This document shows positions 1 to 35,738 of a stretch of DNA of 64,000 bases, piece after piece. The translations under genes and the position numbers were made by a program. The notes under the pieces were generated by a model. It ran no database searches and was not told where the DNA came from. It saw only the letters and a list, made by a program, of their open reading frames with translations. Position 1 is the stretch's first letter. Each line of letters begins with the position of its first letter. The DNA comes from an uncultured Pseudomonadota bacterium (GTDB lineage: Bacteria; Pseudomonadota; Alphaproteobacteria; RF32; CAG-239). The DNA lies in the NCBI GenBank assembly GCA_902763905.1, contig CACWUA010000001.1, positions 11 through 64,010 of the forward strand, in the 5' to 3' direction.

Positions 1-145
1 GAAGTTCCCCGACGAGTAAGGTAGCGAAAGCGCCCCGCAACGAGGCGATGGGAACGAGTGTCCGAAGCTTAAATTTGCTACTGAAAAAACAGTGAAAAAA
101 TTTAAGCAAGAAGATCCTCCCTATCTCCACCAATCAAACGAAAGA

Positions 146-175: not shown

Positions 176-324
176 GTTCTACCAGTATATTCTTTAGTGC
201 CTTTTGTTTTACATAAATAAATACGAAAATGCTTGAAAATAAAAAAAAATGCGCTATGGTATGTCGAATTTGAATGACAAGTTTTTAATTTGTTGAACTG
301 ATGCATTTTAAGGGAATGAAACAG

Positions 325-2154: not shown

Positions 2155-2271
2155 GAACAGTGTATTTAAATCTTTTTCATTGAGAGTTGTGCATTTTAGC
2201 ATCAGTCTCTTGCGTTTGCAAAAAACAAACTCTAAATAACTCTCATAGAAAAGAATTCAAAGAGTAAAAAA

Positions 2272-3402: not shown

Positions 3403-3551
3403 AAATGTTGTGAAAGATATACATACAATTTGAATAATCGGTCTTGTTGTCTGCAATCTGTATGGCAGTATTCAGGCGTACCCTTCGGCGATAGTTAACA
3501 ACATTTTATGCTTGTGGACTTTTATCCGGATTTTTAAAAACCGTAAATTAT

Positions 3552-5575
3552 TTAATTAGTACGATCAATTAAATCACCGATAGCATCTTCATCGGTGTCA
3601 TCGTCAATCAAATCACCGATATCTTCTTTCGGCAGTTGCAAAGCCGGATATTTCGGTGCACCGGCCGGCGTATCTTTGATGGTGGTCATCATGATATCAT
3701 GCCAAATCTTTGCCGGTAAATTCCCTCCCCCTATTTTATTCATCGGTTTATCATTGTCATTACCTACCCATACGGCGGTGATATATTTGTTAGTCCAACC
3801 GATAAACCATGCATCGCGATAGTTCTGGGTGGTACCGGTTTTTCCGGCAGCAAATATCGGCAGACGCGCATTATGTCCGGTTCCCTGATTAATCACGGCC
3901 TCCAACATTTTGGTTAAATTAAGCACATCGGCGGCATCTAAAATTCGAGCCGGTTTTTCGGTTTGGCGCAAGTAGAGCTGCCGTCCGTCATGTGTTGCAA
4001 TTTCATTGATGGCATACGGCCATACTTCGTATCCTCCGTTAGCTAACACTGCGTAAGCTGTCGCCATATCAATAAGTTTAACGGTGTTTGTTCCCAAAAC
4101 CATTGACGGATCCAACGATAAATCAGTCGTGATACCCATTTTATGTGCATTGGCGGCAATATCTTTAAGATACAGCTCTCGCGAAAGTCTTACCGTTGCA
4201 GCATTGAGCGATTGAGCCAAAGCATAAGTTAAAGAAACATCACCGTAATAACGTTTAGTGTAATTTTCCGGTTTCCATTTACCGATGCTTATAGGGGAGT
4301 CTGAGATGATGCTGGATGGTGTAAAACCGACTTGCAAAGCAGTCAAATAAACAAAAGGCTTGAATGAAGAGCCGGCTTGTCGCCTTGCCTGAACCGCCCG
4401 ATTGAATTGGCTGCGATTATAATCTACTCCACCTACCATGGCTTTAATAGCACCGCTTTTATCTAAAATAACCACAGCACCTTCGCTCACGTTTTTATCT
4501 TTTGCCTCACTGATTTTAGCACGCATGATTTTTTCGGCGGTTTCCTGTAGTTTTTGATCAAGGGTTGTCATAACCACCAAGTCCTCGGTGCGTTCTCCGA
4601 CAAATTCATTGACTTTATCATAAACATATTGTGCAAAATGTTTGCCACCTGTAACGCGATATTCTTGTCCGTTGCCGATAGGCTGATTGAGCGCTTGCTT
4701 ATATTCTTTTTCGCTGATGAATTTATATTTTTTCATGCTGTTCAATACAATGTCAGCACGTTTTAAAGCCGATTCTCGGCGCAAAATCGGATTATAACGA
4801 TTCGGAGCTTTCAGCATACCGGCCAAAATTGCCGCTTCGCGCAAGTTAAGGTCATTTACATTTTTATTGAAATACCAATTTGCAGCGGCATCAGCACCAT
4901 AGTTACCCGAGCCGAAATAAACTCTATTAAGATATAGCGCCATAATCTGCTCTTTACTCATTTTCTTTTCGAGCCACAGCGCCAACAACAGTTCTTGCAC
5001 TTTACGCCGTACCGTCTTATTCGGGGTTAAGAAAATATTTTTTGCCACTTGCTGAGTTATTGTCGATGCTCCTTGAGCATAACGCTTGCGAAAAACATTG
5101 GTAAACACGGCTCGGGTAAATCCGAAAACGTCAAAACCGAAGTGCTTATAAAAACGGTGATCTTCAATGGCAATAACGGCATCTGTCAGATTTTTAGGCA
5201 GATTATTCGGATAAATTACCTGCGCATAAATATTGCCGAATTTCGCTATATCATTACCATTCTCTGCCATAATAACCGTTGACGGCTGTCGAGTGCGCGC
5301 CACGGCTTTTTGAATATTGGGCATGGTAATGTAGCAATAAAAAACATAACCGCATATAAGCAAAAATATTGCCAATCCGCTCCAAAAGGTAAATTTAAGC
5401 AATTTTCTTTTCCATGAAACCCGATGCTTGGATGTTTTCGCATTTTTTTTGCGTTGCATTGCCGGTTGTTTACGCGCAGAAGTAACTTGCTTTGTTGAAT
5501 TTCCGCGTTTGGCTGTGGTTTGCTTTTTCAGCGGTATGGTTTTGTTTTTGCTTGTTTTATTTGTTGCTACTGTCA
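3552..5575 (-). CDS. mrcA: Penicillin-binding protein 1A (bifunctional transglycosylase/transpeptidase)
   Basis: An N-terminal TM segment, a GT51 transglycosylase region (EDHRFYKHFGFD, RKVQELLLALWLEKK) and a transpeptidase region (SSFKPF, KTGTT) are present. The start was moved to the ATG at 5575 because a GAGGAAATC Shine-Dalgarno sits immediately upstream; the longer ORF to 5645 has no RBS. Confidence 0.85.
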
Positions 5576-5706
5576 TGATTTCCTCGTTGCTGATGACTGC
5601 ATTATGCCTTTTATAAGTTAAAGAAATCATAAAGTTTGGGAGCAAAATTTAAAATACTTTGCGCTGTACATAAAACATGATTATATTTTACCCAAGGAGA
5701 AAAAAT

Positions 5707-8421
5707 ATGAGTAAAGTTTGCCTGATTGATGGTTCCGGATATATTTTTCGTGCTTTTTATGCCCTACCCGCCATGACCTCACCCGATGGGACTCCGGTTA
5801 ATGCCGTTTACGGCTTTATTACAATGTTTATGCGGCTTTTGAAAAATATTCCGTGTGATTATTGTGTGGTGCTTTTTGATGCCAAACGGCAGAATTTTCG
5901 CAATGATTTTTTTACCGAATATAAAGCAAACCGCGCCGAAATACCGGAATTGCTGATTCCGCAGTTTGATTTAATACATCAAGCTGTGGAATTAATGGGA
6001 TTGCCTTATGTGATGCAAGAAGGATATGAAGCTGATGATTTGATTGCTACTTACGCACGTCAGGCTCTAGATTCGGGTAAAGAGGCCGTGGTGGTTTCGG
6101 CAGACAAAGATTTAATGCAGCTGATTCGTTCGGGAATTACTTATTATGACGGTATGAAAGATAAATTTTACACATCGGAAGATGTTAAAGAAAAATTTGG
6201 CGTATATCCTGATAAAGTCGTAGATGTACAAGCACTTTCCGGTGATAAAATCGATAATATTCCGGGTGTGCCCGGTATCGGTCCAAAAACCGCTGCCGAA
6301 TTGGTGAACGAATATGGTTCATTACAGGGAGTGCTGGCTAACGCCGATAAAATTAAGCAGCAAAAACGCCGCGAATTGCTGATTTCTCATCACGACGATG
6401 CCGAAATTTCTCTTAAATTGGTTACGCTGAAAAATGATGTTCCGGTTGAACATAATTTGGAAGAATTTAAGTGCAAGGCTCCGCAAAACACAAAATTGTT
6501 GGAATTTATTGATAAATACGGTTTTAAAAGTATTCGTCCAAAGCTGGAAAGATGGATTAATGACCGTTGCAATGAGGTTGGAGCCGAACCGGTACTGCAG
6601 CAATCAGAACCGGAGCCGCAAACTCATTATACCAAAATAGAAAATCGCCGGCAATTGGAAGAACTTTACAAAGAAATTAAAAGAGCCGGACAGATGGCAT
6701 TTCAGACAATGTTTGACGGTCAAAAAACAGTAGGAATCAGTATAAGTCCGCAAGTTTATACGGCTTATTATTTACCGATTCCGAACCAAGCAATCGGGAC
6801 GGATTTGTTTGCTTTTGACAACATTCAGATAAGAGATATGGATTTTGTTGCGGTAAGCAATTTTTTGCAAGCGGTTTTGAATGATAGATATATCTTAAAA
6901 ATTGCAGCAGATATTAAAGCACAGTGGCATCGTTTAAATATGCTTTGCGGAAAAAGAATGAATTTATGGCCGTATGATGATTTGGCAATAATATCATATG
7001 ACTTGGATTCTTCGGAGCATGAGCACACACTTCCGGTGCTGTCGAAAATGTTCTTGGATAAATCATTGGAGGAGCCGAAATCTTCTTCGCGCCGCGAAAT
7101 AATCAATTTTGAAGCGGAAGAAAATGGCGAATATATTTATGCTGTTGCCGATTACGCTTCGCGTCTTTATCCTCTGCTTAAAGAACGTTTATTGGTTGAG
7201 AAAAAGAATTATGTGTATGAATGCATTGATCGCCGTCTGGTCGAGGTTTTATTGGATATGGAAGATGCCGGCATAGTGGTCAACGATAAAACTTTATTGG
7301 AACTCGATGCCGAATTTGAAAAACAGCTGAATCTCATAGAAAAAGATATTTTCGAATTGGCCGGAGAAGAATTTAATATCAGCTCTCCGGTGCAAATAGG
7401 ACATATTCTGTTTGAAAAAATGGGACTTAAAGGCAAGAAAACCACCACCGGACGTTATAATACCGGTGCCGAAGTTTTGGAACAACTGGCGGATGAATAT
7501 GAAATTGCCGCCAAAATTTTGGAATGGCGCACCTATGCCAAACTAAAATCGACTTATACTACCTCGCTGTTGGAAGCACGCGATTCGCATAATCGGGTTC
7601 ACACAACTTTTTCGCAAATCGTTGTTAATACGGGACGCTTGGCATCATCAAATCCCAACTTGCAAAATATTCCGAACCGCACAGATATAGGTCGCCGGAT
7701 TCGCGCATGTTTTGAGGCACAAAAAGGTTATAAATTGGTTGCCGCCGATTATAGCCAGATGGAGCTACGTTTGATGGCTTCGGTTGCCGGCGTAAAAGCT
7801 TTAAAAGAAGCGTTTGCGGACGGTGTTGATGTCCATGCGGCAACGGCAGCGCGGGTGTTCGGGGTGGCACCGGATAAAGTTGATCGTGAGCATCGTACTC
7901 GTGCCAAAGCCATAAACTTCGGTATCATTTACGGGATATCGCAGTTCGGTTTAGCCAAACAAATCAATGTATCGCGTGATGCGGCTAAACAATACATCGA
8001 TTCGTATTTTACCATTATGCCGGAAGTCAGGAGTTTTATGGATAAAACCATAGAGTTTGCCCATCGTTACGGTTATGTGGAAACGCCGTATGGGCGTAAA
8101 TGTTCGGTACCTGACATAAATAACCAAAATCATAGATTATCTTCGTTTGCGGAACGTGCAGCCATTAATGCTCCGATACAAGGCGGAGCGGCCGATATCG
8201 TAAAGCTGGCAATGCAAAGGATTGCCGCTGCTCTCAAAGAGAGAAATTGGGATGCTCGTTTGTTGTTGCAAGTGCACGATGAACTTGTGATAGAGGCAAA
8301 AGAAGACATAGTACCTCAAGTTTCCGCGCTGCTAAAGCAAATAATGGAGGAAACAGCAGATACCGCTGTAAAAATGGTGGCGGAAGTGGGAAGCGGCAGC
8401 AATTGGAATGATGCACATTGA
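5707..8421 (+). CDS. polA: DNA polymerase I
   Basis: 5'-3' exonuclease domain (LIDGSGYIFRAFYA), a 3'-5' exonuclease-like region and a family A polymerase domain (RRIRACF..ADYSQMELR..QVHDELV). An AGGAGA RBS precedes the ATG at 5707. Confidence 0.92.
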   Translation: MSKVCLIDGSGYIFRAFYALPAMTSPDGTPVNAVYGFITMFMRLLKNIPCDYCVVLFDAKRQNFRNDFFTEYKANRAEIPELLIPQFDLIHQAVELMGLPYVMQEGYEADDLIATYARQALDSGKEAVVVSADKDLMQLIRSGITYYDGMKDKFYTSEDVKEKFGVYPDKVVDVQALSGDKIDNIPGVPGIGPKTAAELVNEYGSLQGVLANADKIKQQKRRELLISHHDDAEISLKLVTLKNDVPVEHNLEEFKCKAPQNTKLLEFIDKYGFKSIRPKLERWINDRCNEVGAEPVLQQSEPEPQTHYTKIENRRQLEELYKEIKRAGQMAFQTMFDGQKTVGISISPQVYTAYYLPIPNQAIGTDLFAFDNIQIRDMDFVAVSNFLQAVLNDRYILKIAADIKAQWHRLNMLCGKRMNLWPYDDLAIISYDLDSSEHEHTLPVLSKMFLDKSLEEPKSSSRREIINFEAEENGEYIYAVADYASRLYPLLKERLLVEKKNYVYECIDRRLVEVLLDMEDAGIVVNDKTLLELDAEFEKQLNLIEKDIFELAGEEFNISSPVQIGHILFEKMGLKGKKTTTGRYNTGAEVLEQLADEYEIAAKILEWRTYAKLKSTYTTSLLEARDSHNRVHTTFSQIVVNTGRLASSNPNLQNIPNRTDIGRRIRACFEAQKGYKLVAADYSQMELRLMASVAGVKALKEAFADGVDVHAATAARVFGVAPDKVDREHRTRAKAINFGIIYGISQFGLAKQINVSRDAAKQYIDSYFTIMPEVRSFMDKTIEFAHRYGYVETPYGRKCSVPDINNQNHRLSSFAERAAINAPIQGGAADIVKLAMQRIAAALKERNWDARLLLQVHDELVIEAKEDIVPQVSALLKQIMEETADTAVKMVAEVGSGSNWNDAH

Positions 8422-8441
8422 CAAATCCTTGTTTTATTGAC

Positions 8442-8471
8442 CAAATCGGCAATAAAATACTAAAATGTAAC
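8442..8471 (+). promoter_or_regulatory. Putative sigma70-like promoter (TTGACC-18-TAAAAT) for the Cys-rich protein gene
   Basis: A -35-like and a -10-like hexamer with 18-nt spacing lie ~75 nt upstream of the ATG at 8545. This is a sequence-pattern call only. Confidence 0.25.
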
Positions 8472-8544
8472 AAAAAATTCACATTTCTTCTTTAAAAAGT
8501 ATGTTACACTTATGATGTGGGGATATGTTTAAAGGAGAAATAAA

Positions 8545-10326
8545 ATGCGTATTAAGATGAATATGTCTCGATGTATAGGAGGCATGGCTGTAATGGCTTT
8601 ATGGTTTGTTACGGCCGTATATCCGGCGAGGGCAGACGTCTGCTTTTTGCCGACGGGAATATGTGAGCAAGGAGTTACCACCAAAAACGACACCGCCCAG
8701 TGCACTTTGAATCTCAGTATTTACAAGAGTGCGCCGGTAGAGGGCAAAAAGTGTACAAAAGTCGAGGTTCCCGGGTGTCCGACGGTGTATGAATGTTTTG
8801 ATGACAGCTGCGATGCCCGCGGTTATAAGATCAAAGGCACCACCAGTCAGACTACCTACCCGAACAGTTATAATCCGAATACTTGGACCTGTAACAGTTG
8901 TTTGCAGGGTAAGACGTATTTTTGGAATTGTACTCCGAAACCTTGCTCTAGAGGTACCACCAAAGCCAAAGCATCTTGTGCGGCCGGTTATGAGTGGCAA
9001 GCTCAGAATGATTACGGAATGTCCGGTAATGATAAATGCGGAACTTGCGTTATGAGCAGCTGTCCGTCCGGAACAACTTCGGCTCCGGCCAGCGGATGTC
9101 AAATTTGCGAAGTTAGCAGCAGACTGGTAAATGGCACTAAGTGTTACAAATGCCACAGCATGTCAACTGATTATAAAACTCAAACGCAGATTGACTCTAC
9201 ATACAGAAGAAACTTAGCCGGTTCTTGCTATCACTTTAATTCCAAACAAGCAGCTGACAACACAGTATGTTACAATGTTACGGAAAGTGAATGCGGCACT
9301 GATCAATACAAAGGTAAAGCAACCGTCAACGGCCAGATGGCTTGTCAGTGCGTTAATTATGCATACACTTTTGTAACAACAGACGGCAAAGAAGAAGTCA
9401 ATCTTAATTTTCCGGCAACCGGCGGTACTAGCAGTGTAGGGATAAGTTCGGCAAGGAGTGCTACATATTATGGCGGTGGTTTCAGTGAAGGAATTTATTT
9501 TTCGTCTCGAAATACTGAAGGCAGCGGTTTAAGTGTTAGCACATCTGGTAACGTAACAACAATATCCGCTCCTAAAAATGAGGATCAAACCACGGATAAA
9601 ACTTATACCGTACAACTTATCCAACAGTATTCAAACAAAGTAATTACCATCCATGTAAAAGTGGCTCATGATGCTTGTCCGAATGATTATAAATTTGATG
9701 ATAAATGTGAGCAAACCGGTTGGAGAACAAAAACCGATAACAGAACATCTACCACTGGTAAAGCGTGCTATAAGTGCTATAATGATAATTGCTCGACAGG
9801 GTTTACCAAGGGAACAACTCCGACTAACGGCAACTATGATACCGAGACAACACCGTATGGCTCTAACTGCTATAAAGCAAAGCCGGATGATTGCCCGAGC
9901 GGATATACCAAGGGTTCAACTCCGCTGCCGACAAATCACTATAACACCAGCACCACGCCATTTGGTAGCAACTGCTATCAGCAGATATCGGATGATTGCA
10001 CATACGGTTCTCTGAATCCGGGGTACTGCCCGTATGGCCGGAGTTATGTAGGTAAATCAACTTTAGGCAATGATTGCTATGAATGCGATTCGCCGTCTTA
10101 TTGGTGGGATGACGATGACGACGATGACGACGACGATGACGATGATGATGGTTGCCCAGCCGGTGAAACAATGACTACACACGCAGGTTGCTGTAAATGG
10201 GGTGAATTATATCATACTAGTGGATATTATAGCTGCTGCGAGTGCGGTTCAGATTCCGATTGCCCTAGTACAGGCATCCATGGTACGTATATTGGATGTG
10301 TCGGTTGTGAATGTGAGGGCTATTAA
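8545..10326 (+). CDS. Secreted Cys-rich, Thr/Ser-rich repeat protein with a poly-Asp(14) tract (no recognisable family)
   Basis: An AGGAGA RBS lies 7 nt upstream. The N-terminus is signal-peptide-like (MAVMALWFVTAVYPARA|DV). The protein has more than 60 Cys and internal repeats (TTPYGSNCYKAKPDDCPSGYTKGSTP / TTPFGSNCYQQISDDCTYG). A D14 run is followed by a Cys-dense C-terminus. Confidence 0.6.
   Translation: MRIKMNMSRCIGGMAVMALWFVTAVYPARADVCFLPTGICEQGVTTKNDTAQCTLNLSIYKSAPVEGKKCTKVEVPGCPTVYECFDDSCDARGYKIKGTTSQTTYPNSYNPNTWTCNSCLQGKTYFWNCTPKPCSRGTTKAKASCAAGYEWQAQNDYGMSGNDKCGTCVMSSCPSGTTSAPASGCQICEVSSRLVNGTKCYKCHSMSTDYKTQTQIDSTYRRNLAGSCYHFNSKQAADNTVCYNVTESECGTDQYKGKATVNGQMACQCVNYAYTFVTTDGKEEVNLNFPATGGTSSVGISSARSATYYGGGFSEGIYFSSRNTEGSGLSVSTSGNVTTISAPKNEDQTTDKTYTVQLIQQYSNKVITIHVKVAHDACPNDYKFDDKCEQTGWRTKTDNRTSTTGKACYKCYNDNCSTGFTKGTTPTNGNYDTETTPYGSNCYKAKPDDCPSGYTKGSTPLPTNHYNTSTTPFGSNCYQQISDDCTYGSLNPGYCPYGRSYVGKSTLGNDCYECDSPSYWWDDDDDDDDDDDDDDGCPAGETMTTHAGCCKWGELYHTSGYYSCCECGSDSDCPSTGIHGTYIGCVGCECEGY
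10108..10149 (+). repeat. (GAY)14 trinucleotide microsatellite encoding poly-Asp
   Basis: Fourteen consecutive GAT/GAC codons lie inside the Cys-rich protein gene. Confidence 0.85.
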
Positions 10327-10380
10327 TCTCAATCAGACAGGTTAATATACCCAATCCATAATCAGGTACAAATATAAAAC

Positions 10381-10411
10381 AAAGGGAGGTGGTTTTATCC
10401 TCCCTTTTTTG
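10381..10411 (+). terminator. Rho-independent terminator (GGGAGG-loop-CCTCCC followed by T7)
   Basis: A 6-bp GC stem with a 9-nt loop followed by TTTTTTT, directly downstream of the Cys-rich protein gene. Confidence 0.7.
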
Positions 10412-10459
10412 TTGCATCTTGCGGATTCTTATGCTATACACCTCATCTGAGGTATAAAC

Positions 10460-11032
10460 ATGGCTGATGATGATAAATATAAAAGATGTCCGGAATATTG
10501 TCCGTTTTTGAAGGCTAACGGCACGTTTTGTGAATTGTTTCGCCGACCGCTGCAAACTGTTCAAGGAATATCACAAAAATGCGAAGAATGTAAAAATCCG
10601 GAACAGCGTAAAAGTTCTTATAAAGCACTCGGATTGTCTGTAGATGCTCGTGAACAGATATGGCAAAAAGCAATCTTGAAATATAACGAGATAGAACTGG
10701 GTAAAAAACGTGAAGAAGAAGGTGTGCGCAAAAAATTTGCGGCTCTTTTGGAAGATAAATACGGAGCACGTCCTCCGCTTGAAGGTAATGCGTTCTTAAA
10801 GAATTTGATAATCAATCTTTATATGGTGCTTGATGCCACCGAGCGCAGTATGATGGCGGCCATCTTAAACGGGCGCAACGGCGATAGATTGATTGAAGCC
10901 ATTGAACGTGCGCCCAAAGATGAAACTTTACTGCGTAATTTTCGCCGTGAACTTGATGGGCAATTTCAAGAGCATCAGCTGGAAATTAAACGAGAACAGC
11001 AGCAAAGAGACAATATAAATCAGCGTATTTAA
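10460..11032 (+). CDS. Hypothetical protein with an N-terminal Cys cluster (zinc-ribbon-like) and a charged coiled C-terminal half
   Basis: The ORF is 190 aa and a GAGGT Shine-Dalgarno lies 5 nt upstream. The N-terminus reads CPEYC..C..C-x2-C. No family was recognised. Confidence 0.45.
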   Translation: MADDDKYKRCPEYCPFLKANGTFCELFRRPLQTVQGISQKCEECKNPEQRKSSYKALGLSVDAREQIWQKAILKYNEIELGKKREEEGVRKKFAALLEDKYGARPPLEGNAFLKNLIINLYMVLDATERSMMAAILNGRNGDRLIEAIERAPKDETLLRNFRRELDGQFQEHQLEIKREQQQRDNINQRI

Positions 11033-11094
11033 AATATTTGTTGTATTTTTGTCAAATTGGTTTATAATCTATATAAATCAAAGGAGCAATGATA

Positions 11095-13023
11095 ATGACA
11101 GTTGAGACATTACTTACCAGAACCAAAGACAATTGTGTTATCGCATTTACCGTTTACTTTGGCAATGCGGCTGAAAAAACGCGCTTAAAACACGAGTGCG
11201 AAAACTTGTGCCGAAACCTGAATTATAATGAGTTTAACAGCAATATGCTGCGCTCGCACGGGATATCCTTTGATGCCGACAATACCAATTTTTTACACAA
11301 AGAAATTTCCGGATATCATTATCGCAAAGACCGTGCAAACTTTCGTAATGATATGCGTACCGATCCGCCGGCACAAACAAACACGTTGTCCCTATCCTAC
11401 CGGCTTACCGATGATGAATTTCCGGAGATGTTAAAGAATCTCGGTTTTAAAATCACACCGGTTGATAAGGCGTATAATGTGCGCTATAATCCTTCTCAAG
11501 GAAAGTTTGAGGCAGAAAATTTTGTAAGTACTACAGCAACTGTTTATTCAGATGACCGTAAAATAGAAATAGTCCGTAATCATTTTCGTTTTTCGAGTGC
11601 CGATTATCGCCGCTTAAACGAACTAAAAAATGATTTTTTTAATGCAAGGCAAAGCAATCCGCACTTAAGCATGTCATCTTATGTAAGCGCAATTCCGGAT
11701 TTACGCGACAGAGCCTTATTTGATTTTTATGCCCGCGAAAAAAGTAAAGTGGACAATCGCCGGACGACAATAGCTCACGAAATCAAGCATATTAAAAACG
11801 CTGTGTTACGAGACGGTTTAAACCTTAAGTCAAATAACAAACGCTTAAGCGTTGAAAATTATTACCGTATTGCCGTAGAAAACGAGCGTAGTGCGTATTT
11901 AGAAGAACTTGTGCAGAATATTAATGAGTATTTGCAAAAAGGTAATTATAACGATTTTTCGATGTTTTATGTTAATAATGCGGATTTTGTTGCTGAGCTG
12001 AAGCGCTTGCGTACACCGGCCGAACGTTTGGCATACGTGCGAAATTGGCCGCAATTGCTGGCAGTAAAAATGCGTGATTTTAACAGTAATTATTTGGATA
12101 AATACTTTAATCAGTTTAAGCAAATAACCGAATCGAGTATTGAAAATGCACCGCTCAATGCGCAGCCTGACAATGACGATGCAGAGTTCAAAAAATTGCG
12201 CTCGCTATTTTATAATTATCAGATTTATAATCCGGCGTCACATAGTATGGAATCCGTGAATTTGGCGGATTATCTTACTGCTGATTTGGAGATAAGTATC
12301 AATGATAGAGTGCGTCGTGAAATTATTGAACCGCAGCAAAATTGTTTGAATAGGCAGTTAAGCGATTTTGCCAGCGATAAAGCTGCCGGAAACATAAATC
12401 CGGAATTGATTGAGCCGGCAAAAGCACTAATGCGCGGAGGATTGCAAAGCAGCGAGTTTATAAACGAAGTGGATAATTTTCGTGTCTCTTCTTTGTATGA
12501 AGATGATGGTAATTCATTTCCGCAGCCGACAGCACCGTCGATTCCCAGCGATCATGCTCAATGGAGCAACAATTTGCAGCAATATTGGAGTAATACTGTC
12601 GGATATACCGAACTCGCCAAGAATAATGAAGAATATAAGTTTAAGATTAATGGTGCAACAGTACGGTACTCTTCGGATAAAGATGTTCAGGTTAGTCAAA
12701 ATGCAAATTACCAGTTGTATGTCAAGTTATTGAATGAACCGAGCAAACAGAATGCTCCGATTGAATTTTTGGAGACGCTGCGCAAAGAACAAAAACTGCT
12801 TCTTTATATTGCCTGTATCAATAACGGACGCAAACCTATCGGAGCAGTTCCGACAGATTTTTCGGATATTGAAAATTTGCAAGGCATAGCTCCGGCAGAA
12901 ATAAATAAATTCCGCCATCGGATGCAGCAACAATCAGGTGCGGCTCAAAATGCCAATGCGCAAAGCACTCAAACTCGGGCTCAAAAGATGTGTATGCAAA
13001 AGACTATGCAAAATACGCGCTAA
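11095..13023 (+). CDS. Hypothetical 642-aa protein with an HExxH..E (gluzincin-like) motif and no signal peptide
   Basis: TIAHEIKHIKN contains an HExxH motif, and ENERSAYLEE ~35 aa downstream is a candidate third zinc ligand. The C-terminus is Gln/Asn/basic-rich. The ATG at 11095 was chosen because it lies 9 nt after an AGGAG Shine-Dalgarno, whereas the ATG at 11089 is too close to it. Confidence 0.5.
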   Translation: MTVETLLTRTKDNCVIAFTVYFGNAAEKTRLKHECENLCRNLNYNEFNSNMLRSHGISFDADNTNFLHKEISGYHYRKDRANFRNDMRTDPPAQTNTLSLSYRLTDDEFPEMLKNLGFKITPVDKAYNVRYNPSQGKFEAENFVSTTATVYSDDRKIEIVRNHFRFSSADYRRLNELKNDFFNARQSNPHLSMSSYVSAIPDLRDRALFDFYAREKSKVDNRRTTIAHEIKHIKNAVLRDGLNLKSNNKRLSVENYYRIAVENERSAYLEELVQNINEYLQKGNYNDFSMFYVNNADFVAELKRLRTPAERLAYVRNWPQLLAVKMRDFNSNYLDKYFNQFKQITESSIENAPLNAQPDNDDAEFKKLRSLFYNYQIYNPASHSMESVNLADYLTADLEISINDRVRREIIEPQQNCLNRQLSDFASDKAAGNINPELIEPAKALMRGGLQSSEFINEVDNFRVSSLYEDDGNSFPQPTAPSIPSDHAQWSNNLQQYWSNTVGYTELAKNNEEYKFKINGATVRYSSDKDVQVSQNANYQLYVKLLNEPSKQNAPIEFLETLRKEQKLLLYIACINNGRKPIGAVPTDFSDIENLQGIAPAEINKFRHRMQQQSGAAQNANAQSTQTRAQKMCMQKTMQNTR

Positions 13024-28055: not shown

Positions 28056-28283
28056 ATGAAAATAAAGTCTTGCTGTATGGATAAACAAACCATACAAGAA
28101 ATCGGTCATCAACTATGGCAAATGCGCCAAGAACGCAGAATGTATCTGCATACGGTATCTTTCCAAACCCGCATTCCCGAGAGAGTAATAGAGGGTATGG
28201 AAATCGGTAAGTTTATTAAATATTCCGCTTTTCGGTGCCTGATGGAGTTCTATGGCAAAAAAATGCGGATTGTTTTTGAATAA
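28056..28283 (+). CDS. Small XRE-family helix-turn-helix protein
   Basis: The ORF is 75 aa and a GAGGAG RBS lies 7 nt upstream. IGHQLWQMRQERRMYLHTVSFQTRIPERVIEGMEIGK fits a Cro/C1-type HTH. It is convergent with virD4. Confidence 0.5.
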   Translation: MKIKSCCMDKQTIQEIGHQLWQMRQERRMYLHTVSFQTRIPERVIEGMEIGKFIKYSAFRCLMEFYGKKMRIVFE

Positions 28284-28333: not shown

Positions 28334-30547
28334 TTAGGCTTGTGGAGCGTCCATCTCGAAACCTTCGCTGTCATCCTCCTCGGCGTTGTATTCAATACCC
28401 AATTTGGCCAGCATATCGTCATTGATATCTTCACGCTGTGCCACCACCCAATCCGGCACGTTGGCACACGGCGGGAGTTTAGCCAGTTTAGTCATCTTCT
28501 TATCCAAATACCAACGCGGCGAATCGGCAATAATCGGCCGGTCAATATGACTTTGCATCAGTACCACTTGCTTTAACATCGGCAAACTCAAAAGTTGAGT
28601 CGAGCTGATTACCGGAATACCTTGCAGCTGGTAGTTAACGTTTTTCGCCAGCGGGTTAAAGTCTTTACCAAGTGAACCTTCCGTTCGCGAGAACGAAGAA
28701 ATACGAACAGTCTTGTTTCCTATCATCTTAGAGAAACGCTGTGCCGTAACCTCGTTGTTCTGCGAAAGAATAACTTTGCAGGCGGTAGTAGAAATCACCG
28801 TTTCCAAGTCATCTTTTCCGTATTTACCGGAAATTTGCCCCAAGTCTTGTCCGATTAGGAGGTACGACACTTTTTGACCACGACCTACGGCCGGTCCGTC
28901 AATAATGGCCTTCATTTTCGGCATTTGCGGAAACTCGTCGAGCACAAACAGGGCAGGGAACGGTCCCATTTTGCCGTCGGTACGGTTGACGTGATTCGGC
29001 GGATTGGAAATCAGATAAGAGCTCATCAATTCAATAAAGGTCGAACTGATAACGCCCAAAGCGCGCGCATCAACTTGGTTAACCGACAAATACACAGAAA
29101 TAGGCTTCCATTCACCGGTAATCGGGTCTTTCATACCGCGCAAATCCTTAAATTGCAAATCGGAGAAACTGGTACGCGCCTTAACCGCTTGGTTCTTAAA
29201 TACGTTAATACCGGCAAATGCCGTAGAAAGAATGGAACCGCGCTCCTTATCCGGCGTGTTACTCAAAGTACTCAATTCCGTAATACAGCGCTGAGCATAA
29301 CCGTAGTTGCGAGCCTCTTTGATAGCTTCTTCCAACATATCGTGCGTCGGGTCAGCCATTGCCGCCATTTGATCGCCTTCATCCAAACGACGTTGAATTT
29401 CTTGTGCCGCATTAATTTGCGCCTCAGTAATCCATTCCATAATCATGGCAATGCAGGCTTCACGCCCCATCCACCTTGACGGTAGCAGATTCCACGTACC
29501 GATTGGCAGATAGTTTTCCATGGTTAAAGTGCCGTTTTTTAAGTTTTGAATGGCACGCGGAGCTCCCGGATCACGCATATCCTGATAATATCCTTCAAGC
29601 ACTTCTTTGTCTTTTTCATCAAGTTTGCCCTCATAGATGCGACCGATAAAATAGTCGTTGGCGCGGGCGCGATCACACTTTGAAACCACAAATTGAATAA
29701 ATCCGGTTAAGGCTGCACGGCCGGTTTGTGACCAGTGCGGGTCGGCACCGCCTTTCGGATCTTCTACCAAAATATTGCACATGGAATCCACATACATATC
29801 GCGATCCGGCCCTTGTTCCGGAATACAATTCGGCGACAACGGATTCCAGCTTGGATAATAAATACCTTCACTCGGGTTATCTTCCGCACCCCAGTTAATG
29901 ATAAATACCGGCCCCACCTTGGCACGTGCACCGGAAGTTTTGTAACAAAGCTCCGGTTTCGGGTCATTAATCACCAAACTCAAGCCCTCCGAGTGGAAAA
30001 TCGTCGGCATCACCACACCCACGGTTTTACCGGTACCAGGAGGCGCACAGCACAGGGTTGCCAATGTTTCTTTCAAAAGCAAAAACTTGCCGTCAAATTT
30101 TCCCACCACTTGGCAGAAACCGTCAAATCCCAATAATGGCATCTTTTTTATATCGCGCAAATCGGCAATTTTGGCTTGACCTTGATAGTTGACTTGGAAT
30201 TTGTACGGACTGAAAATGGCACTGATGATTATACCGAGTGGAATTGTTATAAAAGGCAGAAGAGGAATCCATAAACTTAAAGAAAATGGTCCGCGGTGAT
30301 TCCATAATTGTTTCCACCATCTTCCATACATTGTAAACAAATGATTAGGATCATGCATAATAATTGTTAAAAACTTCTGTACCACGGTTGTTGACGACTT
30401 AGATAACCCATGACCTACAACATAAGAAAGAGGTAGACTGAAGATAAATAAGATTATGGTGAGACCTATGCAAATAAACAATGTTATCAACATCCATCGA
30501 ACGGCTTTGTCATATTCTTTCCATTCTTCACCACGATCGTTGGCCAT
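28334..30547 (-). CDS. virD4: Type IV secretion coupling protein VirD4/TraG family ATPase
   Basis: Two N-terminal TM helices, a Walker A (CCAPPGTGKTVGVVMPT), the TraG/VirD4 core and an acidic C-terminal tail (EEDDSEGFEMDAPQA). Confidence 0.85.
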   Translation of the reverse strand: MANDRGEEWKEYDKAVRWMLITLFICIGLTIILFIFSLPLSYVVGHGLSKSSTTVVQKFLTIIMHDPNHLFTMYGRWWKQLWNHRGPFSLSLWIPLLPFITIPLGIIISAIFSPYKFQVNYQGQAKIADLRDIKKMPLLGFDGFCQVVGKFDGKFLLLKETLATLCCAPPGTGKTVGVVMPTIFHSEGLSLVINDPKPELCYKTSGARAKVGPVFIINWGAEDNPSEGIYYPSWNPLSPNCIPEQGPDRDMYVDSMCNILVEDPKGGADPHWSQTGRAALTGFIQFVVSKCDRARANDYFIGRIYEGKLDEKDKEVLEGYYQDMRDPGAPRAIQNLKNGTLTMENYLPIGTWNLLPSRWMGREACIAMIMEWITEAQINAAQEIQRRLDEGDQMAAMADPTHDMLEEAIKEARNYGYAQRCITELSTLSNTPDKERGSILSTAFAGINVFKNQAVKARTSFSDLQFKDLRGMKDPITGEWKPISVYLSVNQVDARALGVISSTFIELMSSYLISNPPNHVNRTDGKMGPFPALFVLDEFPQMPKMKAIIDGPAVGRGQKVSYLLIGQDLGQISGKYGKDDLETVISTTACKVILSQNNEVTAQRFSKMIGNKTVRISSFSRTEGSLGKDFNPLAKNVNYQLQGIPVISSTQLLSLPMLKQVVLMQSHIDRPIIADSPRWYLDKKMTKLAKLPPCANVPDWVVAQREDINDDMLAKLGIEYNAEEDDSEGFEMDAPQA

Positions 30548-30563: not shown

Positions 30564-32081
30564 TTATTTTATGTTTTTCAAAACGTTGCGTATATTATCC
30601 AGTTGTTTTTTAGTTACTTTTTCATCAGCCTCGCTGAGAATCTTAGAAAACAGCTTAATTTCCTTCGGTGCACCGCGATTTATGCGTGTAACCTCAATTC
30701 CCATTTCGTTCCATATATCAAACATATCATCAGCATTAATAATATTTGCCATTTGAATAATCACACATGAAGTGATTTTTTGCTCAAATTCGTTTTCATC
30801 GAGTGCGGTCTCAATCAGCTTTTTCACATTATTAAGCTTACAAACCGGTGAAACACGATGACTGCTTTCAGAGAACCACAACGGCTCTTCTCCGTTAAAC
30901 ATCTCCTCATCGGCCAACCAATCACCGCTTTCTTTATCGACTAAACATAAGTAGATATCATTTTGTGAAACACCGACAAAGTCAATAAGTGTACCTTTAA
31001 CCGAAATATTGGTAATAACATCATAATTCTTTTGCAACAATGTTTCATAAACCGGACTGCGTGGCGTATCATTTGTTTTGTTATCCGAATTTCTGGAGCG
31101 CCGTTCACTGCTTCTCTCTTCGTCATCGGTATCACGCTGACGTGAACTGCGCCTAGATGTTTCATCAGATTTACGCGAAGATTTGCGCGAAACTTTATCT
31201 CTGTTGTCGCGTCGATTCGCACGCGGTGATTCAAAGTTTTCTTCATCTTCATCATTATCTTCGTCGTCATCATCATCAAAGTCGTATTTCGGCTTGGAGT
31301 GTTTACTCGGCTGGTTGATTTTCTCTTCATTATCATCCGAATGTTTTTGGGATTTTCTCTCGTTTGTCGGTTTTTTCTTTCCTATATCGGCTTTTTCAAA
31401 GGAGTCGATATCCAAATCGAAATCATCATCATCGTCATCGTCAAATTTGAATAATGCGTGGTCAATTGTGGCGGCCACATCAGTCTTTTTCTTAGCCGTA
31501 GCCGGAGCCGGCGACTGAGCTACCATCGGAGCCGCATAAGACGAACCGGCAACTGCTGCCGCCATCGGTGCGGAAGTAGCCGAATTGCCGTAATCGGAAA
31601 TAGGCACTCGCAAAGTATTAATTCCCGTCGGTCGAATCAACTTATATGATTTACGTTTAACCACTCCATAGCGGTTATTGCCTGTAGATACCGACGAAAG
31701 AGGCGACTTGTCGCTATATTTTTTATAGAGTGTATACGGAAGCTTTATTATATTCCATATAACTTCTTCCCAAGCCACCATGCATAGTGTCCACCAACCG
31801 GTAATCAGCATCGGGAAAAATACAATCATTAAAAGAATAAATGCCCACTCTTTAGGCGCGCGCGGAATCCAACCCGCTTTCCATGTTGTAGCGAATTGAT
31901 GCCAATGATCAGGCCAGAAAATATCAAAATGCCAATTACACAGCATAATTACGCGAATACCCTCTGTGAAGACAATCCCCCACAGGCATCCGACAATTAG
32001 AATTCTAAGAAATACCAATATGGATTTCAACTGCGCACTCCGTAAATTTGCCAATACACTCACTATATTAATAGCACTCAA
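30564..32081 (-). CDS. Hypothetical two-TM membrane protein with poly-Asp/Glu and Arg-Ser-rich disordered tracts (DotM-like position and topology)
   Basis: The ORF is 505 aa and its stop lies 16 nt upstream of the virD4 start. It has two N-terminal hydrophobic helices, low-complexity D7/D5EDNDEDEE and SRKSSRKSDETSRRSSRQRD tracts and a ~150-aa C-terminal globular region. Confidence 0.55.
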   Translation of the reverse strand: MSAINIVSVLANLRSAQLKSILVFLRILIVGCLWGIVFTEGIRVIMLCNWHFDIFWPDHWHQFATTWKAGWIPRAPKEWAFILLMIVFFPMLITGWWTLCMVAWEEVIWNIIKLPYTLYKKYSDKSPLSSVSTGNNRYGVVKRKSYKLIRPTGINTLRVPISDYGNSATSAPMAAAVAGSSYAAPMVAQSPAPATAKKKTDVAATIDHALFKFDDDDDDDFDLDIDSFEKADIGKKKPTNERKSQKHSDDNEEKINQPSKHSKPKYDFDDDDDEDNDEDEENFESPRANRRDNRDKVSRKSSRKSDETSRRSSRQRDTDDEERSSERRSRNSDNKTNDTPRSPVYETLLQKNYDVITNISVKGTLIDFVGVSQNDIYLCLVDKESGDWLADEEMFNGEEPLWFSESSHRVSPVCKLNNVKKLIETALDENEFEQKITSCVIIQMANIINADDMFDIWNEMGIEVTRINRGAPKEIKLFSKILSEADEKVTKKQLDNIRNVLKNIK

Positions 32082-32108: not shown

Positions 32109-32585
32109 TTAATTGTTCGATTCTTGTATTTTCTCAATAATTTCTTTGCGAAAATCAGTAACATTTTCGGATTTGGTTTTTTTCTTTTCTTGATCAAGCC
32201 TCTCCTTAATGAACTGATCCAACGATTTTTTTTCTTCTATTTTTAAGTTTTTGATATTAACATCGGGAGCCACATAGCCGTCAAACCCGCTGTTAAAGAT
32301 TTTGTTGAGCGGCACCGTCAGTAATTTCATATACTTAAAGTGATATAATTTATACCAACCGTAAAAACAAAGCGGCACCACTGATAAAACCATTGCAATG
32401 ACAATTAAATCCTTGCCCTGCAAGACATTTCCTCTGTTCCAAAAGTTGGACAAACTGCGATAGAACACCGGCGGCGTGGTATGATAAACCAATAGTATAA
32501 TGAGCTGTACCAAGCCGGCCAGAATGGCCATCCACAAAACACAGGCAACTAACACGCAAATAAAATGAAAAAACTTTTTAATCAT
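32109..32585 (-). CDS. Hypothetical small membrane protein (2 TM) with a charged C-terminus
   Basis: The ORF is 158 aa with two hydrophobic helices and sits in the same operon, 27 nt upstream of the next gene. Confidence 0.45.
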   Translation of the reverse strand: MIKKFFHFICVLVACVLWMAILAGLVQLIILLVYHTTPPVFYRSLSNFWNRGNVLQGKDLIVIAMVLSVVPLCFYGWYKLYHFKYMKLLTVPLNKIFNSGFDGYVAPDVNIKNLKIEEKKSLDQFIKERLDQEKKKTKSENVTDFRKEIIEKIQESNN

Positions 32586-32652: not shown

Positions 32653-34695
32653 TCATCCTATCGAGATTAATTTTGCGTTTTTTGTTATTCTCTTTGCTTG
32701 CGGCGTTTTGTTCTTTTTTCCTTCAATATCTCTATCCCATTGCTGTTCTTTTTTATGTCCGGAATTTTCCTCTCGTGCCGCTTCATCCGGTCCCATTTTG
32801 GTGGATTTCTTCGGTTTATTGTTACCTTGCACTTGCGCTCGCTCTCCTTCGCTGGGTGTGCGGTAATGATTGTAGAACTTATCAAACTCGACTTCCTGCG
32901 CTTTCATCTGCTGTTCCAGAACTTTTTTCTTGGCCGGATCTTGTTCGGTATGGTATGCACATTGCAAATCTCTCAGAGTCTTACCCTCACAACAGATATC
33001 TGCATAATATCCACCCAATTCTTTTGCCGCCGAATTGGCAATCTTAAGTTTTTCTTTAGGCGGGATTTCGGCATCCGGAGCAAGATGATGCTCAACTCGA
33101 TAATCATTTTCTTTTTGCTTAAATATGACTGAGGTTGTTTCCATCATATCAAACATTTTAATCAATGTTGCTTTCTGAACATAAGCTGCGGCCTCAGCAT
33201 TGCCGTCCAGCTCTTTATCCGGATTTTTTCGAACATATTCATTGGTCGCAAGATGCGCACACAATTTGACCAAATCATTCTTTTTGCCGTCTTTATGGAT
33301 AGGAAAAACAGTTTCCAATTTTTGGGGATCCTTTTCCAATTCTGTAATTTTTTGCATAAAATAACCCTTATCGGAGGCAAAAATCTCATTCATGGTTTCG
33401 GCAAAATTTTGATGTATTTTCGGATCAAATACCACAAACGGCACACCTTTTTGCGGAGCGCCGATAACAGGCTGCCATTTGTCCGGATTTTTGCCGATAT
33501 TGTTTTGAATGCAGCGCAGCATCGGTTGTAATCTTTGCGGATTTTTCATCAAGTCTCCGAATTTATCGACAAAGTCGGCGCGAGTAGCATCAGCCAGTCG
33601 GCTCATTTGCTGCGCAAAAGCGTTAGCTTCCGGCGAAAGCTCAACCGCAGCGGCATTTTGAGGGCTATTACCACTGTTGCCGGCTTTACCAGCAGCTTTG
33701 GCCGCAGCAGAAGTTCTAACCGGAGCTTGTCCTTCTCCGCATAAATAATCCAAACCGGTATCAAGTGTCTTAAATGCTTTTTGCATAACATAGTTAATTA
33801 AACCGAGAAACCAAACGTTATAAAGGTATTGAATTAAATCTTGTTCTTTTACCGGATCAAAATTAAAATCACCTTTTTTACCGCGTTCGGAATCGCGTTT
33901 AGAATCTTCGAGTTGAGCTGTATTTTCCGCTTTTTCATCGTCATTCGGCTTGTTTTCCGGCGGAGTTTCAGCTGAGATATTGAGTTTGTTGCCATCAGCC
34001 GAGAAATTTAATGTATCTGCCTCATTTTCTGGCAATCCTCCCATTCTTATCGGTTCCGATTCGGATTTTTGTTCTTCTGTGCTCTGATTCAATCCTGACT
34101 TTTTTAAGGATTCATTCAGCGCATTTTGCAAAATAAAAGATTTTTTTGCCAAATCCTTATATTTAAGGCTACGTGGTTTGGAGGCATCAACTGCATTAGC
34201 CGCTTTACTTAAAACTTCATCATAATCCAACTTTGCCAATGTTTCGGAAATATCTATCATCACATTGCTGTTTTTATCAAGCAGTTCCAGAGTGTTTTTG
34301 TCTTTAATGCGTTTTTGCTTAAATTCGGCGGCGTACGTATTAAGCGCAACAATTGTCATAATATTTTTGCCGCTTTGCGGATTCTTTTCCGTTAAAAATT
34401 GTACCATTTGCTCGTTGCTTATTTTTCCATCTTCATTAAGCTCTTGCATGGCTTTTAGGGCATTTTTGATACCTGTCAGATTCTGGAATCCGAGTTTTTT
34501 GGTTTCCTCTTTACTCCCGTTCGGAATAGGAGCAGGAAAGATCGCGGCTTTCAGAGCATCGGGCAAATGACCGATACCATATCTAAGCATACCGGCTTTT
34601 ATCAGCTCCATGTCCATATTTACTTCTTTATTCAATTCTGCGCAGAAGAGTTTAAAATCATCAGCTTCATTTGCATTTTTTATATCTTCAGCCAT
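32653..34695 (-). CDS. Hypothetical 680-aa soluble protein, acidic and Lys-rich, no recognised domain
   Basis: Long ORF on the same strand within the virD4 operon. It has no TM segment and no known motifs; codon usage is consistent with its neighbours. Confidence 0.55.
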   Translation of the reverse strand: MAEDIKNANEADDFKLFCAELNKEVNMDMELIKAGMLRYGIGHLPDALKAAIFPAPIPNGSKEETKKLGFQNLTGIKNALKAMQELNEDGKISNEQMVQFLTEKNPQSGKNIMTIVALNTYAAEFKQKRIKDKNTLELLDKNSNVMIDISETLAKLDYDEVLSKAANAVDASKPRSLKYKDLAKKSFILQNALNESLKKSGLNQSTEEQKSESEPIRMGGLPENEADTLNFSADGNKLNISAETPPENKPNDDEKAENTAQLEDSKRDSERGKKGDFNFDPVKEQDLIQYLYNVWFLGLINYVMQKAFKTLDTGLDYLCGEGQAPVRTSAAAKAAGKAGNSGNSPQNAAAVELSPEANAFAQQMSRLADATRADFVDKFGDLMKNPQRLQPMLRCIQNNIGKNPDKWQPVIGAPQKGVPFVVFDPKIHQNFAETMNEIFASDKGYFMQKITELEKDPQKLETVFPIHKDGKKNDLVKLCAHLATNEYVRKNPDKELDGNAEAAAYVQKATLIKMFDMMETTSVIFKQKENDYRVEHHLAPDAEIPPKEKLKIANSAAKELGGYYADICCEGKTLRDLQCAYHTEQDPAKKKVLEQQMKAQEVEFDKFYNHYRTPSEGERAQVQGNNKPKKSTKMGPDEAAREENSGHKKEQQWDRDIEGKKNKTPQAKRITKNAKLISIG

Positions 34696-34775: not shown

Positions 34776-35738
34776 CTAAACTTTTACTTTTTTCATAAAT
34801 TTACCGATTTCAATATTGACGCGAATGCCATCTTTGGGAGTAACCTTTACCAATCCGAAAAAACGCGGTTTTATTTTGGCAAATTCAATCGGGGCAAAAA
34901 TTGCCGGATTGGTGGTTAGAGCCTTAAATGCGCCGTCAACATCTTTTTGTGCCACACGGAAATAATTGCTGACAAGGCGTTCGGCATCTATCGGAAAATT
35001 TTTTTTCTTTACGGCTTCAACCAAACGTTTTTGACGTTCTTTGCGTTCTAAATATTCTTCATAAAGCATTCGTTTTATGTGTTTTTCCTGATATTTAAGC
35101 AATTTAGCCTGATAAGTCAGTTCACAGCTTTCCATGTCAATCAAGATCTCGACATACGAGATTACGGCTAATTGCAAGTCCTGATCGCGTAAAGTCTCGG
35201 CAAAATTCAAAAATTCTTCATCGGTGGCAGAAACGTTAAATCCACCGACACTGTCCGGATAAATCTCACGCAATACATTCCAGCCGGCAACTAAGTCAGT
35301 CGCCAATAAATGTCCTATACTAGGTTTATAGTTCGGGTACAAAAAATCAATTTCAAACTCCCAGTTTAATGAAGGTATACTCTTGGCCGCACAAATCTTA
35401 TCAATAGAACCGCGATAATTTATATAAGCCTGCGCTAATTCGGATTCTTCACTTCTCAATTCTGGTTTCTTTTCTTCATCTTCAATAACTGTGCGAGCCT
35501 GCTCAAAAGTTTCAGCCAGTTCTTTTTCAAATGCATCTGAAGCGGCATCGTTTTCCGTCTGTCCTTGCTGACTCAAAGCCGGTTCTTCCGGTTTTTCTGC
35601 CGGTGCGGTTACAGCGGTTTCATCATCTTCCTCTAAATCATCAACTTTAGAGTTAATAAAGCTGTTTAAAAGCTTTTCAAAATCATCACCTTGGCTAAAT
35701 TCATTTTCATCACTCATAAAATCAGTACTCCTTTGCAA
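34776..35738 (-). CDS. Hypothetical 320-aa protein with a strongly acidic N-terminal third
   Basis: First gene of the minus-strand operon, divergent from rluD. No recognised domain. Confidence 0.5.
   Translation of the reverse strand: MQRSTDFMSDENEFSQGDDFEKLLNSFINSKVDDLEEDDETAVTAPAEKPEEPALSQQGQTENDAASDAFEKELAETFEQARTVIEDEEKKPELRSEESELAQAYINYRGSIDKICAAKSIPSLNWEFEIDFLYPNYKPSIGHLLATDLVAGWNVLREIYPDSVGGFNVSATDEEFLNFAETLRDQDLQLAVISYVEILIDMESCELTYQAKLLKYQEKHIKRMLYEEYLERKERQKRLVEAVKKKNFPIDAERLVSNYFRVAQKDVDGAFKALTTNPAIFAPIEFAKIKPRFFGLVKVTPKDGIRVNIEIGKFMKKVKV

Follow-up and report, generated by a model that had tools for sequence, protein, structure and literature searches.

What is the protein encoded directly upstream of a VirD4-type coupling ATPase on the chromosome of an uncultured alphaproteobacterium of the RF32 lineage, and what might it do for that ATPase? 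The question arises from a stretch of 64,000 nucleotides (nt) of contig CACWUA010000001.1 (assembly GCA_902763905.1), referred to here at its full length as the window, in which an open reading frame (ORF) on the reverse strand (30564..32081) precedes a gene for a type IV coupling protein (T4CP). The original prediction, made from the letters and their translations, described the product of this ORF (the target protein) as having two transmembrane (TM) helices and a DotM-like topology, with a eukaryote-like disordered centre. We have followed the target protein through its homologues, its genomic surroundings and its predicted structure. On balance, we favour a different explanation. The target protein would found a family, so far undescribed, whose members reside in the inner membrane of uncultured, host-associated Alphaproteobacteria and serve a VirD4-type ATPase encoded on the chromosome as its dedicated partners. 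Two bodies of evidence carry this explanation: a conserved linkage to one subfamily of T4CPs, and a conserved architecture in which a membrane hairpin is joined, by a disordered linker containing short conserved motifs, to a C-terminal domain of nuclease fold.

RESULTS

The target gene and its linkage to a T4CP gene

The two genes on which the analysis centres are as follows.

30564..32030, reverse strand: target gene, 488 amino acids (aa) (gene calls, homologue starts, GGAG)
28334..30547, reverse strand: gene for the VirD4-type T4CP, 737 aa, with an acidic tail ending ...DDSEGFEMD (Pfam, motifs, profile)

The ORF at 30564..32081 is present in the translation of the window and counts 505 aa from its first TTG. 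On the source contig, both of two independent gene predictions give it 488 aa and a start at TTG 32030 (residue 18), all of the 22 aligned homologues begin at or past the position of that residue (MKS...), and a GGAG lies 7 nt 5' of the codon; therefore, the true start of the target gene is most likely TTG 32030. Residue numbers for the target protein follow the 505 aa frame throughout. A scan for promoters and terminators gave none above shuffled expectation.

That the ORF is a real gene, and more than a chance reading frame, is confirmed by its homologues, of which a word-indexed search returned at least 941, and by a gene order that is kept from species to species. The best 120 of these homologues are 50–93% identical to the target protein over 97% of the query. 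Database entries for the homologues are unnamed or called 'hypothetical', and all derive from metagenome-assembled Alphaproteobacteria. When one genome per GTDB species was scanned, 58 loci were found, all in metagenome-assembled genomes from rumen, gut or faeces (the RUG, RGIG, Hadza/Nepal, UBA3307 and UBA1254 groups). Among those species loci that extend beyond the target gene, the T4CP gene is the next gene in every case (53/53), at a distance of no more than ~20 nt; in the window itself, 16 nt separate the stop codon of the target gene from the ATG of the T4CP gene. The location directly 5' of a coupling ATPase, from which the original prediction had argued, is thus upheld. The target family is large, unannotated and confined to uncultured Alphaproteobacteria.

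A profile search of 1.84 billion cluster representatives returned 352 relatives of the C-terminal domain (E ≤ 1e-3), many of which are 330–540 aa long and share the architecture of the target protein, being composed of a W.FD..HW..W..GW hairpin, a KSYK..RP motif, an acidic Phe-containing disordered linker and the C-terminal domain. Five of six distant relatives (P0146, P0167, P0173, P0156 and P0295) are encoded directly upstream of a T4CP gene, among housekeeping genes. The T4CPs of the distant relatives are 48–59% identical to the T4CP of the window, far above the 33% of the best plasmid T4CPs, and therefore a specific T4CP subfamily co-occurs with the target family. The five-gene order orf320-orf680-orf158-target-T4CP is kept and adjoins rluD and rpoH, with dnaE, parAB and gidAB near the module, a core chromosomal setting. 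Median identities between species are 86% for the T4CP, 80% for RpoH, 77% for DnaE, 53% for the target protein and 29% for the product of orf680. Tandem duplicates of the target family occur at two loci, L065 (5177-6331 and 6391-7500) and L072 (8891-9964 and 10001-11065). In these duplicates, as in the truncated paralogue orf158 described below, the membrane domain stays next to the T4CP. From the conserved linkage between the target gene and the T4CP gene, a role of the target protein in the coupling complex can reasonably be inferred.

The coupling ATPase

The neighbouring ATPase matches all three T4CP domains of Pfam above their cutoffs (T4SS-DNA_transf, 193.7 bits and E 7e-57; TrwB_AAD_bind, 63.1 bits; TraG-D_C, 76.3 bits) and contains a Walker A motif, APPGTGKT, and a Walker B motif, LFVLDEFP. 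Its profile matches Cagβ, the best solved relative (8dol, 1e-7), and marginally TrwB; DotL was not matched by this profile. The nearest plasmid relatives, those of 33% identity, are encoded in virB8-virB9-virB10-virB11-virD4 operons. By its sequence, the ATPase is a type IVA, VirD4/Cagβ-like coupling protein, and the analogy with type IVB systems that had been drawn for this locus does not fit its partner. The acidic, Phe-containing end of its tail resembles that of F-plasmid TraD.

The T4CP of the window differs from type IVA coupling proteins such as VirD4, Cagβ and TrwB in being encoded on the core chromosome, away from virB genes. Indeed, no VirB-type gene was detected by Pfam anywhere in the 64-kb window, and tblastn searches for VirB8-11 and for the other neighbours in the related plasmid operons found none in 1.10 Mb of flanks from ~65 genomes. 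No dot/icm Pfam family occurs in the window. There is no relaxase gene nearby, and the target protein has no Pfam or NCBIfam relaxase match.

Across loci L001-L062, the T4CP gene is a core-chromosome gene that is more conserved than DnaE and RpoH and has no virB gene nearby. Converging on its 3' end (28056-28283, forward strand) is a gene for a small helix–turn–helix protein of 75 aa with a weak HTH_25 match, present only in some species (L007, L011 and L021).

Membrane domain and topology

A full-length AlphaFold model of the target protein was built from a 94-sequence alignment. Together with hydropathy and conservation, it divides the protein into the following segments, given in order from the N-terminus.

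31932..32027, reverse strand: TM helix 1, residues 19–50, with an invariant outer end MLCNWHFD (hydropathy, model, alignment)
31857..31931, reverse strand: predicted periplasmic loop, residues 51–75, with a short helix at residues 57–68 (model; topology inferred from charge)
31779..31856, reverse strand: TM helix 2, residues 76–101, with invariant P90, M91 and TGWWT (hydropathy, model, alignment)
31713..31772, reverse strand: juxtamembrane helix, residues 104–123, with which the confidently modelled part of the membrane domain ends (AlphaFold)
31590..31676, reverse strand: basic linear motif NNxYGVVKRKSYKxIRPxG...PISDYG, residues 136–164 (alignment)
31377..31487, reverse strand: acidic-aromatic motif KKTDVAATIDHALFKFDDDDDD(D)FDLDIDSFEKADI, residues 199–235, which includes the D7 run (alignment)
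31056..31376, reverse strand: polyampholyte spacer, residues 236–342, in which acidic and basic blocks alternate and which includes D5EDNDEDEE and the R/S-rich stretch (alignment, model)
30567..31055, reverse strand: C-terminal NERD-like domain of PD-(D/E)xK fold, residues 343–505 (Pfam, model, fold search)

A Kyte–Doolittle scan gave two hydrophobic segments, residues 20–48 and 79–103, and in the AlphaFold model the membrane domain is helical with a predicted local distance difference test score (pLDDT) of ~96, so that the two N-terminal hydrophobic helices proposed earlier are supported by both lines of evidence. The loop between them is rich in Trp and His and nearly invariant (H51, F52, D53, F55, H59, W60, W67, G70 and W71). 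The stretch past TM helix 2 (residues 111–198) carries a net charge of +11, which by the positive-inside rule would place the C-terminal part of the protein in the cytoplasm and give an N-in/C-in hairpin; the large cytoplasmic part that was originally proposed is accordingly judged probable. Averaged over 120 homologues, as are all mean identities given here, identity to the window copy is 76% in the membrane domain (residues 18–110) and 50% in the juxtamembrane stretch (residues 111–198).

The disordered linker and its motifs

Residues 124–337 (~215 residues) have pLDDT values below ~56 and are therefore predicted to be disordered. The translation does contain the features noted at the outset, namely the D7 and D5EDNDEDEE runs and the R/S-rich SRKSSRKSDETSRRSSRQRDTDDEERSSERRSRNSD. 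In evolutionary terms, the description of this centre as one of extreme low complexity does not extend to the first acidic run, which falls within the best conserved element of the protein (KKTDVAATIDHALFKFDDDDDDFDLDIDSFEKADI; core motif FKFDDDDDDFDLDIDSFEK): at 89% mean identity, residues 199–235 are the best conserved 37 residues of the target protein. The basic linear motif is conserved too, its KSYK..RP being retained even by distant family members.

The spacer that follows is the least conserved segment, with a mean identity of 27%; it keeps its composition (~26% D+E and ~26% K+R) and its length (58–128 aa). The R/S-rich stretch within it had been likened to the RS domains of eukaryotic serine/arginine-rich (SR) proteins, and the window copy is indeed locally enriched in R, S, D and E and has nine RS/SR dipeptides. 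However, the number of these dipeptides varies from 0 to 11 among 121 homologues (median 4), only mixed charge is retained in the segment, and the target protein has no Pfam match to an RNA recognition motif (RRM). Matches to eukaryotic low-complexity proteins in PDB sequence searches were non-significant (E 0.7–6). The reading as a eukaryote-like RS domain is rejected on this poor conservation and on the non-significant PDB matches; the stretch is best read as a generic mixed-charge bacterial linker, a fast-evolving polyampholyte spacer.

Acidic motifs containing Phe recur among the proteins of the module. One is located at the C-terminal tail of the T4CP (...DDSEGFEMD in the window and (acidic)n-F-E-x-D in orthologues). 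Another is the conserved acidic-aromatic DDDFEKLLNSFIN near the N-terminus of the orf320 product (at ~aa 17–29; window ~35652-35690), which resembles DDFDLDIDSFEK of the target protein and aligns both with it and with DDFDKLLDDFINS of P0235, a soluble relative in which a domain of the C-terminal type is followed by DDFDKLLDDFINS and then by AAA+ modules. It is tempting to speculate that these motifs represent a shared charge-plus-aromatic recognition code, or short linear motif; their recurrence recalls the interaction between the TraD tail and TraM of F plasmids.

The C-terminal domain

The C-terminal domain is confidently modelled, both on its own (residues 338–505, from 52 sequences; pLDDT 87, predicted template modelling score 0.84) and within the full-length model (same residues; pLDDT ~90). 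The predicted structure has a restriction-endonuclease-like alpha-beta-beta-beta-alpha-beta core fold. A fold search with the domain matched Can2, N.BspD6I, NucS, VC1899, FokI, Hjc, McrC and others, and Foldseek agreed on a nuclease fold with the domain model and with the full-length model. The Pfam NERD profile (PF08378) scores 20.2 bits on residues 348–442 of the target protein, against a cutoff of 22.1 (E 9e-4), and matches 8 of 51 distant members at E ≤ 0.01 (best E 2e-6); precomputed PF08378 matches exist for four close homologues and three distant ones. The likeness to NERD proteins therefore consists of weak to moderate Pfam matches that exceed the threshold for a few members.

The putative metal-site residues of the domain are D367, D382 and E384. 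Within the gut clade, D382 and E384 do not vary and the conservation of D367 is 90% or higher; of 184 membrane-type family members, 88% retain D367, 92% D382 and 68% E384, and 23% have a lysine at position 383. The catalytic pattern D...(D/E)xK is not that of the family, in which the canonical lysine is not conserved. The D367...D382-x-E384 spacing could form a BamHI-like D...DxE site in most members. Residues kept in ~100% of the 184 members (W388, A390, E392, W402, S411, P412 and N449) fall in GDWLADEE.FNGE.PLWFSE.SHRVSP and NIINA(D/E)DM (NIINADDM in the window), outside the catalytic positions, and therefore the family signature is an acidic loop and not a catalytic triad. The domain as a whole is acidic, with 28 D+E vs 19 K+R (net −9), and its mean identity to the window copy (residues 343–505) is 67%. 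We judge a binding role to be more likely for this domain than catalysis.

Within the NERD / PD-(D/E)xK fold class, the target protein is a divergent member whose active site is degenerate. From NERD proteins it differs in the unconserved (D/E)xK lysine; in a family-specific insert, GDWLADEE...PLWFSE.SHRVSP, which is the most conserved element of the target family; and in its linkage to a T4CP gene, which we did not find described for NERD proteins in the literature. NERD proteins that are anchored in the membrane form a known class.

Soluble relatives of the GDWLADEE-type domain also exist (P0235, P0244, P0245, P0268, P0232, P0246, P0249, P0250 and P0182). In these the domain is either fused N-terminally to one to three AAA+/AAA_lid_6 (CbxX/SpoVK-type) modules or, in one soluble relative, embedded in a TPR-Roc-COR-TIR protein, so that the domain recurs beside ring or signalling NTPases outside the Alphaproteobacteria. 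The genomic contexts of the soluble domain-AAA+ relatives were uninformative. Among 72,556 plasmids, no homologue of the domain was found.

Other genes of the operon and of distant loci

The three remaining genes of the operon lie upstream of the target gene.

32109..32585, reverse strand: orf158, two TM helices and a K/E-rich tail (HMM vs distant members)
32653..34695, reverse strand: orf680, in the same operon, fast-evolving, with a basic lysine-rich C-terminal tail (gene order)
34776..35738, reverse strand: orf320 (313 aa according to gene callers), the first operon gene (gene calls, alignment)

A hidden Markov model (HMM) of orf158 matches the N-terminal/membrane region of distant family members (E 1e-14 to 1e-5), and by these matches orf158 is a truncated paralogue of the membrane domain of the target protein; pairwise BLAST between the two was not significant. 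The orf680 product has one hydrophobic stretch, YLYNVWFLGLINYV, and no family match, and is a candidate substrate or surface protein. That of orf320 has a conserved C-terminal domain of unknown fold. HMM searches found no homologue of orf320 or orf680 in the distant lineages.

In the distant lineages, the T4CP gene is followed by two genes (L065, 9846-11372; L066, 13397-15138; L071, 13535-14676; L072, 13448-14964). The first encodes a protein of 220–430 aa whose N-terminus varies and is often rich in Pro/Gln and whose C-terminal domain, KRARRDF...LIQTHPYH...DRSVYAGF, is conserved; the second encodes a protein of ~145 aa with a weak match to SUKH_6 (SMI1/KNR4; E 0.014). These may be a toxin and its immunity protein, in which case the system would export proteins rather than DNA. 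At L071 a prophage-like block (1-8750) with a T7-like capsid, a head-tail connector, a nozzle and an S24 repressor lies directly upstream of the module on the opposite strand, probably by coincidence.

Elsewhere in the window, the interval from polA to mnmE contains three consecutive genes on the forward strand (8545-13023; 593, 190 and ~642 aa), none with a recorded Pfam match.

DISCUSSION

The explanation that we favour, of the target protein as a dedicated membrane partner of a chromosomal VirD4-type ATPase, suggests the following arrangement. The hairpin would anchor the protein in the inner membrane beside the two-TM N-terminal domain of the T4CP hexamer, where its invariant Trp/His-rich outer loop would contact a periplasmic partner. 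On the other side of the membrane, the long polyampholyte linker would be a flexible tether by which the motifs and the nuclease-fold domain could extend to the ATPase ring in the cytoplasm. The VVKRKSYKxIRP motif, the acidic-Phe motif and the NERD-like domain would there engage the ring or its substrates, and the target protein would in this way help to recruit, hold or gate T4CP cargo. At most, it acts like an accessory subunit of a coupling complex. Type IVA coupling proteins are thought to recognise their substrates largely alone or via soluble adaptors, membrane-embedded accessory subunits being known mainly from the Legionella type IVB system. Accessory factors of T4CPs include CagZ for Cagβ, TraM for the acidic tail of TraD, and XVIPCD for VirD4; we know of no two-TM nuclease-fold protein among them. 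Indeed, in the literature we found no description of a NERD-type or other nuclease-fold membrane protein paired with a T4CP, and nothing relevant on RF32 with type IV secretion.

A number of observations weigh against this explanation. No VirB gene was found in the window or in the 1.10 Mb of flanks, and a type IV secretion system (T4SS) machine for the T4CP to serve is therefore hypothetical in these bacteria; its channel may be encoded elsewhere, with genes scattered as in Rickettsiales, and this is the main uncertainty. One of the six distant relatives, P0188, has no adjacent T4CP gene. The soluble AAA+ and TPR-Roc-COR-TIR fusions imply that the domain is not T4CP-specific, and the single-chain model gives the conserved linear motifs no structure. 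Finally, some nuclease activity may persist, because 88%, 92% and 68% of the membrane-type members retain D367, D382 and E384, respectively.

One rival proposal is that the target protein is an active membrane-tethered PD-(D/E)xK nickase or endonuclease that prepares or cuts DNA for export or uptake by the T4CP, which we regard as unlikely. The fold does match restriction endonucleases, nickases (N.BspD6I), NucS and Hjc, but the strongest conservation lies outside the catalytic positions, and an acidic domain of net charge −9 would be unusual for a DNA binder. Likewise, D367...D382-x-E384 may be read as a BamHI-like arrangement that is (near-)invariant in the gut clade, whereas across the membrane-type members the lysine is present in 23% only, the first Asp is missing in ~12% and E384 in ~32%. 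T4CPs are generally known as DNA translocases in conjugation, and no relaxase gene is found nearby; against this, the toxin/immunity-like gene pair of the distant lineages, with its weak SUKH_6 match, points to protein substrates. Such an enzyme would be comparable to the MOBC-type relaxases (such as pAD1 TraX), which have a PD-(D/E)xK fold and act next to a conjugative coupling protein. The target protein differs from them in being membrane-anchored and core-chromosomal, in its degenerate catalytic motif and in lacking any Pfam or NCBIfam relaxase match, and no oriT or mobile element is evident.

It is distinctly unlikely, in our estimation, that the pair formed by the target protein and the T4CP constitutes, with orf158, orf320 and orf680, a core-genome membrane translocation device independent of a classical VirB channel. 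Such a device would be a machine for the export or import of DNA or protein and might be essential to the lifestyle of gut Alphaproteobacteria, with the nuclease-fold domain, which is also fused to AAA+ ATPases in other phyla, serving as a ring-ATPase adaptor.

We consider it very unlikely that the locus is a conflict or defence module, in which a nuclease-fold effector or sensor would be combined with a ring ATPase repurposed from secretion. Defence systems often contain NERD-like and PD-(D/E)xK domains as well as ring ATPases, and one relative is a TPR-Roc-COR-TIR protein. However, defence islands are variable, whereas this module has a fixed core-genome position, vertical inheritance and an ATPase conserved like DnaE; moreover, PADLOC returned no match for the five operon proteins, and the plasmids searched contain no homologue of the domain.

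The comparison with DotM, from which the analysis set out, has to be considered both as homology and as function. The target protein resembles DotM in its membrane anchor, in a gene located directly upstream of that for the coupling ATPase and in having, probably, its bulk in the cytoplasm, and both could plausibly play an accessory role at a T4CP. Three TM helices are predicted for DotM, whose cytoplasmic domain is all-helical, with 13 helices, and carries basic patches that bind Glu-rich peptides or signals (PMC5802825). In contrast, the target protein has a two-TM hairpin with a loop helix, ~215 disordered residues and an acidic alpha/beta domain of nuclease fold, and its partner is VirD4-type, not DotL-type. 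No DotM/IcmP family of Pfam or NCBIfam matched the target protein at E ≤ 0.1, PDB sequence searches at E ≤ 10 returned no DotM chain, whether the query was the single sequence or the 94-sequence profile, and none appeared in fold searches with the domain or full-length model. Prediction of the C-terminal structure followed by a fold search, the check to which the DotM likeness lent itself, thus led to a PD-(D/E)xK, NERD-like fold, and DotM homology is ruled out by sequence, fold, charge and T4SS type. What the target protein shares with DotM-type accessory subunits is best described as an analogy of position and topology.

The functional form of the comparison, in which the cytoplasmic part of the target protein would be a receptor that captures acidic effector secretion signals, is highly improbable. 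Its gene position and anchored topology do resemble those of icmP(dotM)-icmO(dotL) (PMC5802825), a conserved basic juxtamembrane motif lies within the +11 stretch, and the acidic-Phe motifs of the T4CP tail, the orf320 product and the target protein could, with the basic motif, form a charge-based recognition system. Yet there is no similarity in sequence or fold, the folded domain is alpha/beta and acidic where that of DotM is all-alpha with basic patches, the target protein itself bears an acidic motif, and neither a DotL-type partner nor dot/icm genes are present in the window. It is barely credible that the T4CP instead handles the target protein as one of its substrates or effectors, for instance as a eukaryote-like disordered protein destined for a host cell: charged linear motifs, a long disordered region and an origin in gut and rumen bacteria would suit an effector, but the two-TM anchor is strongly conserved and modelled with high confidence, the RS-like stretch is unconserved, the PDB matches of the protein to eukaryotic low-complexity proteins are non-significant, and the 1:1 synteny is typical of machinery, effectors being usually fast-evolving in the manner of orf680.

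The analysis delimits a separate NERD-like subfamily and three short conserved motifs, in a module carried by Alphaproteobacteria that are uncultured but abundant in human (Hadza, Nepal) and ruminant guts. If the target protein is indeed a dedicated partner of the chromosomal VirD4-type ATPase, a membrane protein of nuclease fold at VirD4 would represent a new kind of coupling-complex subunit, and would offer an entry to an as yet uncharacterised, secretion-related module whose conservation equals that of DnaE.

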